From: Nibricoccus sp.
GTDB lineage: Bacteria > Verrucomicrobiota > Verrucomicrobiia > Opitutales > Opitutaceae
Reading direction: 5' to 3'
Length of the DNA stretch: 64,000 nucleotides
NCBI GenBank assembly: GCA_047602425.1
Contig: JASGHG010000001.1
Coordinates: 2,912,001-2,976,000, forward strand
Shown: in pieces, positions 27,080 through 32,002 of the stretch
Layout of the letters: each line of letters opens with the position of its first letter
How positions within the stretch are numbered: the first letter of the stretch is position 1
Program-made: the position numbers and the translations under genes
Notes under the pieces: generated by a model
Seen by the model: the letters and a program-made list of their open reading frames with translations, nothing else
Databases searched by the model: none
Told to the model about the DNA's origin: nothing

Positions 27080-28495
27080 ATGAATTTAGTGAAAAAAATT
27101 TTGATCGTTCACGGCGATGCCAAGATGAAGCGTCGTCTCGTTTTGCTGCTGGCGGACGCGGGGTACGACTTGCGCGCATACACCGCGGGCGACCCCGCGC
27201 TTGAAACTGCGCGTGTCGAATGGTTCGACCTTGCCCTTGTGGATGCCTACCTGACCGGCCAGCCAAGTTTTGATTTTGTCGAGGCATTGAAAAAAGTTCA
27301 GCCCACGGTTCCGGTGGTCATGGTGGTTCCCCAACTCGAACTTCCCTTGATCGTGAAAGGCATTCGTATGGGCTTGAGCGACGTGCTTCCCACCACGGGC
27401 GACTTCCGTCCGCTCCTGCGGCGCGTCAACAACCTCCTCAGGCCGAACCAGGATATATCGACCATAGGGGAAAGCCTTACCTCCGCGGAGTTGGCCGACG
27501 CCGAGGCCGTGTTGCAGGTTCTCGGAAATCCCGAGATCGGCCAGAGTCAGGATCCCTTTAACGTGCCGGATGTTCGCGCCGAGCTCCTCAAAGGCGAAAA
27601 AGAACGCGCGCAGCTCGAGACCAAGATCGAACGCCTCGCGCACGAAAAGGCCGCCCTTGAGGCGGAGATGAAAACATTGCTCGCGCAAAATACCGACGCG
27701 GTTCGCATGCAGACCGAATTCAAGGATCTGCGCACGCAACGCGACATGGCCGCTGCGGCCCAAGCCATGATCGATCAGAAGGCGCGCGCCCTCGCCGACG
27801 CCCGCTCGGAACTTGCGCGTGAGCGCAGCCTGCTCGAAGAGGAGAGGCGGAAACTGGCCGAGACCACGCAGAAAATCGCTCCGGGTGGAAAAACGATTGA
27901 GGAACTTGCGAAGGAGAGAGCTGAATTCGACGCGATGCGCGCCAAGCATCTCGCCGACGAAGCGCGTTTGCGTGAAGAAGGCACGCGTCAGCAACACGAA
28001 GCCATGCAGATCGCACAGGAACGCCGTCGCTGGCATGAAGACCTCGACCTGCTCCGCGAGCAGGAAACCAATCTCCGCGAATACGAGGCTCGTCTGCGCC
28101 AATTGCAGGCCCAACTCGAGGCGGATCGAGTGCTTTGGTTCAGCTCCCGTCCGACTTCGCGTTCGCCGTTCCAGGACGACGCAGCCGTCAAAGCGGCGTG
28201 GGAAAAACTCCAGCGCGCGACCGATCTGCTCGAAGCCGAGCGCGCCGTTTTCCGTGACGAACGCATGGCGATGCGTGAGCTGGAAGCCGACATCAAACGT
28301 CGCGAAGCCAAACTGAACGAAGGCGATGCCGGCCTGGCCGACCACGATAAGCGTCTGCGCACCTTGATCACCACGACGCCGACCAACACGGCTCCCGGCA
28401 TTCCGGCTGGGGTTTCCATGGCAACGTCGCCGATGAAAATTCTCTCGAATCATCCTTTCGATCCGGCGAAATCCACGCCGACCCGCAAAGGCTGA
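27080..28495 (+). CDS. Atypical receiver domain plus long coiled-coil protein
   Basis: KKILIVHGD...FDLALVD receiver fold, then about 270 aa of E/R/K/A heptads. Confidence 0.78.
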   Translation: MNLVKKILIVHGDAKMKRRLVLLLADAGYDLRAYTAGDPALETARVEWFDLALVDAYLTGQPSFDFVEALKKVQPTVPVVMVVPQLELPLIVKGIRMGLSDVLPTTGDFRPLLRRVNNLLRPNQDISTIGESLTSAELADAEAVLQVLGNPEIGQSQDPFNVPDVRAELLKGEKERAQLETKIERLAHEKAALEAEMKTLLAQNTDAVRMQTEFKDLRTQRDMAAAAQAMIDQKARALADARSELARERSLLEEERRKLAETTQKIAPGGKTIEELAKERAEFDAMRAKHLADEARLREEGTRQQHEAMQIAQERRRWHEDLDLLREQETNLREYEARLRQLQAQLEADRVLWFSSRPTSRSPFQDDAAVKAAWEKLQRATDLLEAERAVFRDERMAMRELEADIKRREAKLNEGDAGLADHDKRLRTLITTTPTNTAPGIPAGVSMATSPMKILSNHPFDPAKSTPTRKG

Positions 28496-28566
28496 GTTTC
28501 TTATAACCGCATTCAGTTTTTATTTGAGCTTGCCCAGCTTGGGCGGAGCTGTTGGTTTCCCGCACG

Positions 28567-28665
28567 ATGAATCTCGTCTCCAAACGTACAAATATGGTCT
28601 CCGCCTCCAAAGCGGTGCGTATTTGCACGCATGCATGGTGGCACGGAGTGGCTCGACGATGGTGA
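28567..28665 (+). CDS. Putative Trp-rich leader peptide (32 aa; alternative start 28594)
   Basis: MNLVSKRTNMVSASKAVRICTHAWWHGVARRW*; TGG TGG at 28636-28641, TGG at 28660-28662. Confidence 0.7.
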   Translation: MNLVSKRTNMVSASKAVRICTHAWWHGVARRW

Positions 28666-28758
28666 CGCGCGAAGATCGCGTCCGGTGTTAACGAAACCAA
28701 AAAATAAACACCCCTCCCGTCGAGCCCGACTCCAAACCGAGTCGGGCTTTTTATTTTT
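28650..28758 (+). promoter_or_regulatory. Attenuator: antiterminator overlapping an intrinsic terminator
   Basis: GGCTCGACG (28650-28658) complementary to CGTCGAGCC (28718-28726); terminator AGCCCGACTC-caaacc-GAGTCGGGCT (28723-28748) + T-tract. Confidence 0.72.
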
Positions 28759-28823
28759 CCCGTCCGAACCTCGATAAAACCGCAAAGCCAGAAAGCTCAG
28801 ATTTTTCAAAACCACTTTATGTC

Positions 28824-29555
28824 ATGAATACCTCCCTTGCTCTCGCTCCCGCTCCTTCGCCGGTGGAACTGGATGTTCCCTCGATCGCGTTTTTCGGCCG
28901 CACCCTGGCCGAGTATGCGCAGTTTTTTTCCCTCGATATCGATGCTCTTGACGGCCTCTCGGTCCTCGATGTCGCCGCCGGTCCGTCGTCTTTCACGGCC
29001 GAAGCCTGTAGACGCGGCGCTGATGCCGTTGCGGTCGATCCGCTATACGGCTGCACCCTGCAAGCGTTGTCGGCACATGTCCAAATCGATTACCGGCGGA
29101 TGATCGAACAGATGCGGACCAAGCCGGAGTTGCTGCGCTTTCGGTCGTTCAAGTCGATCGACGAAGCCGAAAGCAGCCGGCGCACCGCGGCCGAAAGATT
29201 TTTGGCGGACTACGAACAGCACTTCGTGCACAACCGTTACATTGGCGCGGCGCTTCCACAGCTGCCGTTCCTCGACGGGGCCTTCGATCTGGTGCTTTGT
29301 GCGCATTTTCTTTTTGTCTACGCGAAGAAGTTCGGTTTCGAGTTTCATCTTGAGGCTTGCCGTGAGCTTGTGCGCGTGAGCAGCGATGAAGTGCGGATCC
29401 ACCCGGTGGTTGGTTTGGGCGGAAAGACCTACGCTGAACTCGACCGTTTGAGATCGGTGCTCGACGCCGAAGGAATCGAGAGCGAAGTCGTGCCGGTGGA
29501 ATACGAATTCTTCAAGGGCACCGACTCGATGCTGGTGCTGAAGCGTGGCGCGTGA
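28824..29555 (+). CDS. Class I SAM-dependent methyltransferase-like protein, uncharacterised family
   Basis: VLDVAAGPSSF motif I, AVDPLY, LPFLDGAFDLVLCAHFLF, ELVRV. Confidence 0.82.
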   Translation: MNTSLALAPAPSPVELDVPSIAFFGRTLAEYAQFFSLDIDALDGLSVLDVAAGPSSFTAEACRRGADAVAVDPLYGCTLQALSAHVQIDYRRMIEQMRTKPELLRFRSFKSIDEAESSRRTAAERFLADYEQHFVHNRYIGAALPQLPFLDGAFDLVLCAHFLFVYAKKFGFEFHLEACRELVRVSSDEVRIHPVVGLGGKTYAELDRLRSVLDAEGIESEVVPVEYEFFKGTDSMLVLKRGA

Positions 29556-29606
29556 ACGGCACTGCGCTTCTGACAAAACTATTATCTATCTGTAAAACAT
29601 AGTGCC

Positions 29607-30053
29607 ATGAATATCTGTTATGAAGTGGATCGGGTCATCTCTGAGGACCAGTTTATCGACTTGTTGCGACGCTCGACCTTGGCAGAACGCCGGCCGGTGG
29701 ACGACGTGCGCTGCATCCGCGCAATGCTGGAGCACGCCAACCTGCTTTGCACGGCGTGGGATGGGCCGAAGCTCGTCGGCGTGGCGCGATCACTGACCGA
29801 TTTTAAATACTGCTGCTATCTTTCCGACCTCGCGGTTGATGAAAGCTATCAGCGGAGCGGCATTGGCCGCGAACTCGTCCGACTGACAAGTTCTAAACTG
29901 GGTCCGCGGGCGAAAATAGTCCTGCTGGCCGCGCCGAAGGCCGAAGCCTATTATCCGAAAATCGGTTTTGAGGCGCATCGCTCTGCGTGGGCAATGCCGG
30001 CGTCACGGCTAGCGCGAGAAGTAAACCACATTCAAGAGGCATGGATGCATTGA
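29607..30053 (+). CDS. GNAT family acetyltransferase
   Basis: LVGVARSLTDF, YLSDLAVD..YQRSGIG, YYPKIGF. Confidence 0.9.
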   Translation: MNICYEVDRVISEDQFIDLLRRSTLAERRPVDDVRCIRAMLEHANLLCTAWDGPKLVGVARSLTDFKYCCYLSDLAVDESYQRSGIGRELVRLTSSKLGPRAKIVLLAAPKAEAYYPKIGFEAHRSAWAMPASRLAREVNHIQEAWMH

Positions 30054-30118: not shown

Positions 30119-32002
30119 TTAGGCTTTTTCCATTTCCTCCAGCTTAGAGGCGGCCTGCTCCCAGTCGGCGGTGGCGGCGGTGATTTGATCGACGATGCTG
30201 CTGAGTTCCCGATTTAAATTCTGGGCTTTGCCGGGCGTGGAATAAGTTTCGGGCGCTTCCAACTCGGCGGTGAGTTCGGCTTGCTTTGCTTCCAACTCGG
30301 CAACGGCTTTTTCCAGCTGGCCAACTTTTTCGCGGAATTTGCGGATTTCGTTCGGGGTCGGCTTTTTTGCGCTCGAAGCTGCGGGTGTCGCTTTGGAATT
30401 TGAAATCTGCGCTTTGGAATTTGCAGCCGCCTGCACAGGGCGCCCATCGGTGAAACCGGCGGTGAGCGCGGCGCGGGCGTCGCTGGCTTTGGACTTTTCC
30501 AAATAGTAATCGTAGTCGCCGGCGTAAGGCGTCAGACGACCGGAATGGACGTGGAGAACATTCTGCGCGAGGGCACGGATGAAATGAACGTCGTGGCTGA
30601 TGAAAATGAGGGTACCTTCGTAGTTTTTCAGCGCGCTGATGAGCGAGTCGATCGACTGAATGTCGAGATGGGTGGTCGGCTCATCCATGAGCAGGAGATT
30701 CGGCGGCTTAACGAGAAGGCGGGCGAGGGCGAGGCGGGATTTTTCACCGCCGGAAAGAACATTGATGGGTTTGTGAACGTCGTCCTTGCGGAAGAGGAAG
30801 GCGCCGAGAATGGCTCTGGCTTGTTGTTCGGTGAGCTGATTTTCGTTAGTCCGCAGCGACATCACGTTTTCGAAAACGGTCAGATTGGGATCCAGGTTGT
30901 CGAGTCGGTTCTGCGCGAAGTAGCCGGGGACGACGTTGCTGCCGAGTTCACGCGTGCCGCCCTGAATGGGAATGACGTCGGCGAGGATTTTGAGCAGCGT
31001 GGATTTGCCGGCGCCATTGGGTCCGACGAGGACGATGCGCTGGCCGCGCTCGGCCGTGAAATTGAGATCCCGATAGACGACGTGATCGCCGTAGGCCTGT
31101 TGGACGTGTTCGAGTTCGATAACCTTGAGTCCGGAGCGCGGGGGTTGCGGGAATTTGAAATTCATTTTCCGCAACTCTTCGGTAGGTTCCTCGACGGCGA
31201 CTTCCTGAAGACGCTCGATTTGTTTTTCCTTAGACTTGGCGCGGGACGCCATGGAAGCCTTGGCACCGAAGCGATCGACGAATTTCTGAAGATGGGCGAT
31301 TTCGCGCTGTTGGTTTTTGAAGGCGGCGAGTTGTTGGGCTTTTCGGGCTTCTTTCTCGGTTAGGAAGTTGTCGTAGTTGCCGTGGTAGTAGTGAAGCGTG
31401 TTCGCGCGCAGTTCGAGCATGCCGGTGCAGAGCGCGTTGAGAAAGGCGCGGTCGTGGGAGATGACGACGAGGCCGCCGGGGTAGCGCGTGAGATAGTCCT
31501 GAAACCAGAGGAGGGCTTCGAGGTCGAGATGGTTGGTCGGTTCGTCGAGGAGGAGAAGGGCTGGTTCGGCAACGAGGAGGCGGGCAAGATGGGCGCGCAT
31601 GACCCAGCCGCCGGAAAACGTTTTCGCAAGTTTGAGAGCATCGCCTTCCTTGAAGCCAAGCCCGGCGAGGATTTTTTTTGCGCGCGGCTCGAGCGTGTAG
31701 TCGATGTCGTAGTCGTCGTCGGTCGGTTCGAGCTTTTTGCCGCTCGTCGCGATGTGGAGAATGGTTTCGTCGCCGGCGGGCGCGCTTTCCTGCGGAAGGA
31801 AACCGAAGTCGGCGCCGCGTTCCCATTCGATGGTGCCGGTGTCGGGTTTTTCCTCGCCGAGGATGAGATTGAACAGCGTGGATTTCCCGGCGCCATTGGG
31901 GCCGATCAGGCCGAGGCGGTCGGTGCGGGCAATGAAGAGCGACACGTCGCGAAAAAGTTCGCGCGTACCATAGGACTTGGAGACATCGGCGATCGTAAGC
32001 AT
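30119..32002 (-). CDS. ABC-F family ATPase (Uup/YheS-like)
   Basis: Two GPNGAGKS Walker A motifs, LDEPTNHLD and MDEPTTHLD, no TM segments, C-terminal coiled coil. Confidence 0.93.
   Translation of the reverse strand: MLTIADVSKSYGTRELFRDVSLFIARTDRLGLIGPNGAGKSTLFNLILGEEKPDTGTIEWERGADFGFLPQESAPAGDETILHIATSGKKLEPTDDDYDIDYTLEPRAKKILAGLGFKEGDALKLAKTFSGGWVMRAHLARLLVAEPALLLLDEPTNHLDLEALLWFQDYLTRYPGGLVVISHDRAFLNALCTGMLELRANTLHYYHGNYDNFLTEKEARKAQQLAAFKNQQREIAHLQKFVDRFGAKASMASRAKSKEKQIERLQEVAVEEPTEELRKMNFKFPQPPRSGLKVIELEHVQQAYGDHVVYRDLNFTAERGQRIVLVGPNGAGKSTLLKILADVIPIQGGTRELGSNVVPGYFAQNRLDNLDPNLTVFENVMSLRTNENQLTEQQARAILGAFLFRKDDVHKPINVLSGGEKSRLALARLLVKPPNLLLMDEPTTHLDIQSIDSLISALKNYEGTLIFISHDVHFIRALAQNVLHVHSGRLTPYAGDYDYYLEKSKASDARAALTAGFTDGRPVQAAANSKAQISNSKATPAASSAKKPTPNEIRKFREKVGQLEKAVAELEAKQAELTAELEAPETYSTPGKAQNLNRELSSIVDQITAATADWEQAASKLEEMEKA

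Follow-up and report, generated by a model that had tools for sequence, protein, structure and literature searches.

Leader-peptide attenuation has reportedly been studied ahead of a methyltransferase at Bacillus subtilis tlrB/yxjB (PMC6851288), and Vecchione and Sello (2010) are said to have found an auxiliary, indolmycin-resistant TrpRS of Streptomyces under the control of an attenuator. Indolmycin resistance of TrpRS1 is treated in the accessible text of PMC9437257. For the whiB7 uORF, the accessible part of PMC10274678 reports that a single Trp codon explains species differences in the response to Trp limitation. Classical trpL attenuators (RF00513), among them the actinobacterial trp/trpS2 attenuators covered by the accessible text of Seliverstov 2005 (PMC1262725), combine a Trp-codon uORF, mutually exclusive antiterminator and terminator helices, and a U-tract. 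Here we analyze a leader from Nibricoccus sp. (Opitutales) that has the same elements and probably acts as a Trp-tRNA-sensing transcription attenuator, turning on a methyltransferase gene when Trp decoding stalls.

The window, by which we mean the whole 64,000-nucleotide stretch analyzed, carries a 32-codon leader uORF (28567..28665, +) ending HAWWHGVARRW*, with tandem Trp codons (TGGTGG, 28636..28641, +) as the predicted sensor (-5 and -4, counting back from the first antiterminator codon). The antiterminator joins a 5′ arm within the uORF (GGCTCGACG, 28650..28658, +) to a 3′ arm (CGTCGAGCC, 28718..28726, +) in nine perfect base pairs and encloses two nested helices (28664..28712, +), whose sequence and length vary among relatives. 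The 3′ arm shares 4 nt with an intrinsic terminator (28723..28758, +) consisting of a 10-bp stem (28723-28732 with 28739-28748) and a U-tract. This terminator lies 228 nt after the upstream gene and 65 nt before the start of the predicted regulated gene, a class I SAM-dependent methyltransferase of 243 amino acids (28824..29555, +). A sequence-only reading of this DNA had reported the uORF, the perfect 9-bp pairing, both nested helices, the terminator with its T-tract, the small overlap between the two structures and the two distances, and each of these parts stands. When the domain 28650-28726 is folded, both nested helices are present at -29.3 kcal/mol. A shuffling test of the fold gave z = -2.62, with 2 of 200 shuffles as stable. 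The genome has 359 strict terminators, and no other one is both followed by a long ORF and preceded by a perfect 8-nt antiterminator complement.

We sampled the methyltransferase in 25 of 61 related genomes, at 48 further loci, and in 28 of 301 genomes of the phylum. Removal of identical leaders left 86 distinct verrucomicrobial loci, and the leader is present before 80 of them. A script anchored 76 of the 86. In seven of these rows it had picked the wrong arm or frame; their leaders are visible by eye, but the rows were excluded, so that 69 leaders are counted below. At the 10 loci missed by the script, a leader could be seen by eye in four (three also found by the covariance model) and none in six. 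These six leaderless loci are distant homologues (33 to 37% identity) that branch apart from the clade with leaders (24 sequences; support, 0.87). The leader is also present at loci with a different upstream gene. Within the genome, a covariance model gave a single strong match, and all 12 of the new strong matches checked in other genomes precede the same methyltransferase gene. The weaker matches in the genome gave no further copy: 12 (of 21) were inspected, and each was either a chance match or an ordinary terminator. No relative was found in the viral contigs searched.

Both helices covary. In an alignment of 53 sequences (7 of 60 extracted regions were excluded as mis-cut or too divergent), 94.3% of antiterminator cells are paired and five of nine pairs have changed on both sides. 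In the terminator, pairing reaches 98.1%, and 7 of the 10 pairs covary. Neither helix was matched by any of 500 shuffles and slid controls scored far lower, although kinship among the aligned sequences inflates such tests. Columns 129-131 of the antiterminator, which are not part of the terminator stem, show compensatory changes too. Judged by comparative sequence analysis, then, this element is a real, conserved attenuator.

The reading frame of the uORF is conserved along with the RNA. The predicted sigma70-type promoter of the leader (28530..28558, +) has a -35 element, TTGCCC, a 17-nt spacer, and a -10 element, TGGTTT, that is off the family consensus (CATCAC or CATCTC in most relatives); the uORF ATG lies 37 nt from the -35 element. 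In a frame-independent test, we searched upstream of the 69 leaders for TTG[CT]-N19-CAT, which was present in 46, compared with 52 of 2,398 background windows. The first ATG or GTG 34 to 41 nt past the motif was in the frame of the Trp codon in 45 of the 46 cases and missing in one, with none in another frame. Because this spacing places an in-frame start at the likely start of the transcript, the mRNA is probably leaderless, beginning at the uORF ATG.

All 69 leaders encode Trp within codons -25 to -3, with a Trp codon three to seven codons ahead of the antiterminator; TGG occupies position -4 in 61 and position -5 in 27. The sequence-only reading had taken the tandem Trp codons as the sensor and had looked to orthologues for a conserved WW uORF with covarying pairs. 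The Trp-codon uORF and both covarying helices are indeed conserved, but tandem WW ahead of the arm belongs to a minority (22 of 76 rows, a set that includes the 7 mis-anchored ones and in which the window locus has WW); what is conserved instead is one Trp bordering the antiterminator. On the arm itself, CGA is found at position +2 in 69 of 69 leaders, compared with a genome-wide usage of 5.3 CGA per 1,000 codons, and in the window it is followed by TGG (28657..28662, +). GG..YG, the consensus of a polymerase pause site, is matched in 61 of 69 leaders. The ribosome may be kept on the arm by the invariant CGA together with the distal Trp codons, an element that might also serve as a pause site for polymerase. 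Over the 12 codons preceding the arm, pN/pS is 0.43, versus 0.78 and 1.81 in shifted frames, and it is 1.29 in the more N-terminal part of the uORF, all of these values coming from nonindependent sequence pairs. The last 12 codons thus appear to show some peptide-level selection beyond Trp.

To examine switching, we folded the nascent RNA of the 69 leaders with the ribosome modeled as a shield. When left untranslated, 63 of the 69 leaders form the antiterminator, and induction should accordingly follow a stall anywhere within the first ~22 codons. The sequence-only reading inferred that a ribosome stalled at the Trp codons frees the antiterminator. With a ribosome at the last upstream Trp codon this was so under a 9-nt shield (62 of 69) but not under a 12-nt shield (7 of 69). 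The model therefore depends on footprint length, and the folding results place the Trp codon at the edge of the permissive zone. A ribosome on the arm abolishes the antiterminator (0 of 69), a trivial consequence of the arm being blocked. At equilibrium, the full transcript favors the terminator even with a Trp stall (0.89 to 1.0), so the switch must be kinetic. In these predictions, no 1:2 protector hairpin appeared in the consensus fold upstream or in the folding of the leaders. The earlier proposal of ribosome-mediated attenuation with a Trp-codon uORF is thus supported by conservation, covariation, the in-frame leaderless start and a Trp-depleted product, although the leader differs from trpL in showing no protector hairpin.

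In the mechanism that we propose, a leaderless transcript would begin at the uORF ATG. When charged tRNA-Trp is plentiful, the ribosome would pass the Trp codon and occupy the 5′ arm of the antiterminator, where slow CGA and TGG codons and the stop codon would hold it; the terminator would then form and transcription would end near 28758. A shortage of Trp-tRNA would halt the ribosome on the Trp codon, which is roughly the last point at which the arm is still uncovered. The antiterminator would then form during transcription and take up the lowest 4 bp of the terminator stem, and polymerase would continue into the methyltransferase gene. An enzyme free of Trp could be produced under Trp stress.

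The methyltransferase matches PF08241 above the cut-off and conserves D49, G53 and D72 (the motif I glycine and the acidic residue after strand 2). Its AlphaFold model (pLDDT 96.8) shows a class I methyltransferase with a Rossmann-like fold, and a fold search with this model returned generic matches only (Z up to 12.3, with ties). Searches for substrate clues gave no PDB sequence match, weak profile matches only, and atlas clusters with generic names, and no NCBIfam resistance methyltransferase model was matched above its cut-off. With a pI of 5.1 (family median, 5.7), the enzyme is acidic, which argues weakly for a small-molecule substrate. The family is large (1,670 clusters at 50% identity, with E values up to 0.001), and distant homologues of the enzyme adjoin TetR, MarR, PadR, GNAT, DinB, and DJ-1 genes, a detoxification-like setting. 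Some Opitutaceae orthologues (L024/L026, L147/L160, L149/L161) carry an in-frame internal insertion, giving open frames of 317 to 346 amino acids.

The enzyme of the window contains no Trp. Across the family, Trp content is 10.6 per 1,000 residues for 50 leaderless homologues matched in GC content but 1.1 for 24 leader-bearing enzymes (log2 = -3.3), and no other residue shifts beyond 0.8 log2 units. At one position, Trp is found in 79 of 79 leaderless homologues and is absent from 24 of 24 leader-bearing ones. Of the 120 closest proteins, 73 contain no Trp; among 871 ORFs of similar size in the genome, however, 121 are likewise free of Trp. By shared ancestry, the loss could be traceable to few ancestral events. 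Enzymes of Trp biosynthesis show cognate bias according to the accessible text of PMC4209129, and the purging of Trp from the methyltransferase appears to resemble it; over the matched stretch in the same genome, TrpE has no Trp and TrpB has one.

Homologues from high-GC genomes have Trp leaders of another kind. A methyltransferase homologue on a Rhodococcus plasmid is preceded by a short WW leader, MTLTQHWWPYF*. Sufficient upstream DNA was available at 67 metagenome loci, and 5 of these have WW ORFs of 9 to 13 codons that end 112 to 143 nt before the match, compared with a background rate of 0.10 to 0.13% for a pattern that was defined after the first case had been seen. The other 62 lack a short WW leader, two of them having longer or differently placed WW ORFs; at L176, outside the short-WW count, a longer ORF ending ...DGWWRHWIV* lies 134 nt upstream of the match to a high-GC homologue. 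From GC content and tree position, the metagenomic WW-leader loci appear to be actinobacterial, the named record being that of Rhodococcus only. The homologues with WW leaders fall in three subclades apart from the Opitutales clade, and five of six retain the conserved Trp. Leaders of the Rhodococcus type contain GGCC repeats and no U-tract, and such repeats are described for actinobacterial trp attenuators in the accessible text of PMC1262725. Folding of the high-GC leaders gave no resolved switch structure, the Opitutales-type model found no match upstream of the gene at high-GC or Bacillota loci, and Rfam models found nothing relevant at six high-GC loci. With 6 of 24 plasmid records examined, the five plasmid homologues other than that of Rhodococcus (from Acinetobacter, Bacillota, and Synechocystis) had no Trp leader.

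We weighed three other explanations. An attenuator of the whiB7/tlrB type would respond to general translation stress or to antibiotics: a drug-induced stall or uncoupling within the first ~22 codons would free the antiterminator, and the enzyme would modify the drug or the ribosome. Formation of the antiterminator by untranslated RNA in 63 of 69 leaders agrees with this, as do an uncommonly fixed uORF length, mostly 25 to 28 codons to the arm, and the xenobiotic-regulator contexts of distant homologues. Of 76 rows, 40 contain [RK]x[RK], a motif of macrolide-dependent arrest, which the peptide of the window lacks. Precedents are found in the accessible portions of PMC12121999 and PMC10274678. 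We nevertheless consider this explanation unlikely: it leaves unexplained both the specific, tenfold loss of Trp from the enzyme and the separate WW leaders of the high-GC homologues, and the acidic enzyme matches no NCBIfam resistance methyltransferase. As to the inducer, the evidence from these sequences leans toward Trp rather than an antibiotic.

A second explanation reverses the logic of the switch. In an arrest peptide like TnaC, a ligand such as free Trp would arrest the ribosome at the C-terminal CGA-TGG-stop on the arm and cause termination, with read-through when the ligand is absent. The CGA invariant in 69 of 69 leaders would fit, as would the frequent distal Trp codons, which lie too far downstream to aid antitermination, the pN/pS of 0.43, and an Ala at position -6 that is kept via four synonymous codons. 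The stop codon, however, varies from 3 to 13 codons past the start of the arm; several leaders (L005, L034, L110, L123, L144, L145) have lost their distal Trp codons and retained the upstream Trp; and the high-GC leaders have only 9 to 13 codons and a different tail. On this evidence, such an arrest peptide is quite improbable. That the hairpin merely terminates the upstream response-regulator gene, with an incidental uORF, is scarcely credible and largely refuted by covariation: the upstream gene lies 228 nt away on the same strand and is often syntenic, and AAGCCCG starts are common among the genome's terminators, but the leader survives a change of upstream gene, has its own promoter motif and in-frame start, and shows compensatory changes at antiterminator columns 129-131, outside the terminator stem.

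Attenuation in response to Trp decoding, the reading that we prefer, appears to concern the methyltransferase gene alone. The sequence-only reading had paired this gene with a GNAT acetyltransferase (29607..30053, +), which proves to be a neighbor only. The GNAT gene follows the methyltransferase in 1 of 72 loci (the window and 0 of the 71 others, several loci having ≤1.5 kb of downstream sequence and one having none), lies 3.4 Mb from it in a same-genus genome, G004, and has its own promoter-like site (29570-29598), so that we rejected an operon of the two. Read-through into the GNAT gene is possible at the window locus but is not the conserved system. The GNAT site, CTGACA-17-TAAAAC-8-ATG (29570-29609, +), has the same 37-nt geometry as that of the uORF, which suggests that leaderless genes may be common in this family.

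Other features of the surroundings are recorded here. Upstream of the leader, in the window (27080-28495, +) and in most Opitutaceae loci, is a gene for a receiver domain with a long coiled-coil-like tail. Convergent on the locus is a gene for an ABC-F family ATPase (30119-32002, -), syntenic in same-genus relatives, which scores 486 against a cut-off of 380 with the NCBIfam model for ribosomal-protection-like ABC-F proteins and, being on the opposite strand, is outside the control of the leader. Many Opitutus-like loci (L008, L037, L039-L041, L044, L049, and others) have a 435-amino-acid gene starting MFPQH downstream on the same strand, which may be of the pyrimidine-nucleoside phosphorylase type. 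Elsewhere in the genome (G000:C1, ~2389000-2431000, outside the window), extra tRNA clusters include two additional tRNA-Trp(CCA) and unusual Arg(GCG) and Arg(TCG) anticodons, among 84 tRNA calls.

The Trp-codon leaders that the actinobacterial relatives possess in their own right suggest a Trp-stress function for the enzyme. We looked for the leader before trpE, a second trpE/pabB-like gene, trpS, trpB, and trpB2 of this genome and found none (trpA, trpC, trpD, and the DAHP synthase gene lay outside this check). The most plausible job of the enzyme, offered tentatively, may be the inactivation, through methylation, of a small molecule that antagonizes Trp or inhibits TrpRS; we favor such protection because the enzyme is acidic, its distant homologues have xenobiotic-type neighbors, and the trp genes checked lack the leader, and by analogy with the Streptomyces TrpRS. 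In a broader and more doubtful reading, this widespread methyltransferase family might be an inducible defense against Trp antagonists or TrpRS inhibitors, placed independently under Trp-codon attenuators in Opitutales and Actinobacteria and purged of Trp for synthesis while Trp decoding is poisoned. The Opitutales leader, the separate high-GC leader and the purging of Trp would together offer an initial clue to the function of a methyltransferase family that is large and unannotated, and these three Trp signals make its substrate directly testable.

In the literature searched, outside whose scope lay supplements, most subscription papers, and some uORF or attenuator catalogues, we found no description of the Opitutales leader. 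Trp attenuation would thereby extend to a phylum and a class of target for which that literature yielded no report. The design is also stripped down: predicted leaderless, with one edge-positioned Trp codon and no protector hairpin.

Compared with classical trpL attenuators, with which it has in common the Trp-codon uORF, the exclusive helices, and the U-tract, the Opitutales leader controls a PF08241 methyltransferase, not Trp biosynthesis, TrpRS, or Trp transport. It is predicted to be leaderless, has ~30 codons and often one Trp codon, and places the antiterminator arm inside the ORF; the 1:2 hairpin was not found. Rfam RF00513 (Trp_leader) scored 22.9 bits (E = 0.18), below the gathering threshold of 41 bits. 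It is thus a leader that acts, on our reading, as a Trp attenuator yet falls outside the classical group on target gene, protector hairpin, and Rfam score. The whiB7/wblC leaders, as presented in the accessible text of PMC10274678, are alike in that translation of the uORF leads to the terminator and stalling to the antiterminator, and in that a single Trp codon can confer a response to starvation. Their uORF varies, is rich in Ala, and governs a transcription factor, whereas in the Opitutales leader Trp is fixed at the edge of the antiterminator. The B. subtilis tlrB/yxjB and erm leaders similarly use leader-peptide attenuation ahead of a methyltransferase, but tlrB and erm encode macrolide-induced 23S rRNA methyltransferases, while the Opitutales enzyme is acidic and matches no such family. 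The attenuator of the indolmycin-resistant Streptomyces TrpRS, finally, reportedly also uses ribosome-mediated attenuation, ahead of a gene with a suggested role in protection from a TrpRS inhibitor; its product is a resistant synthetase, whereas that of the Opitutales leader would be a modifying enzyme.
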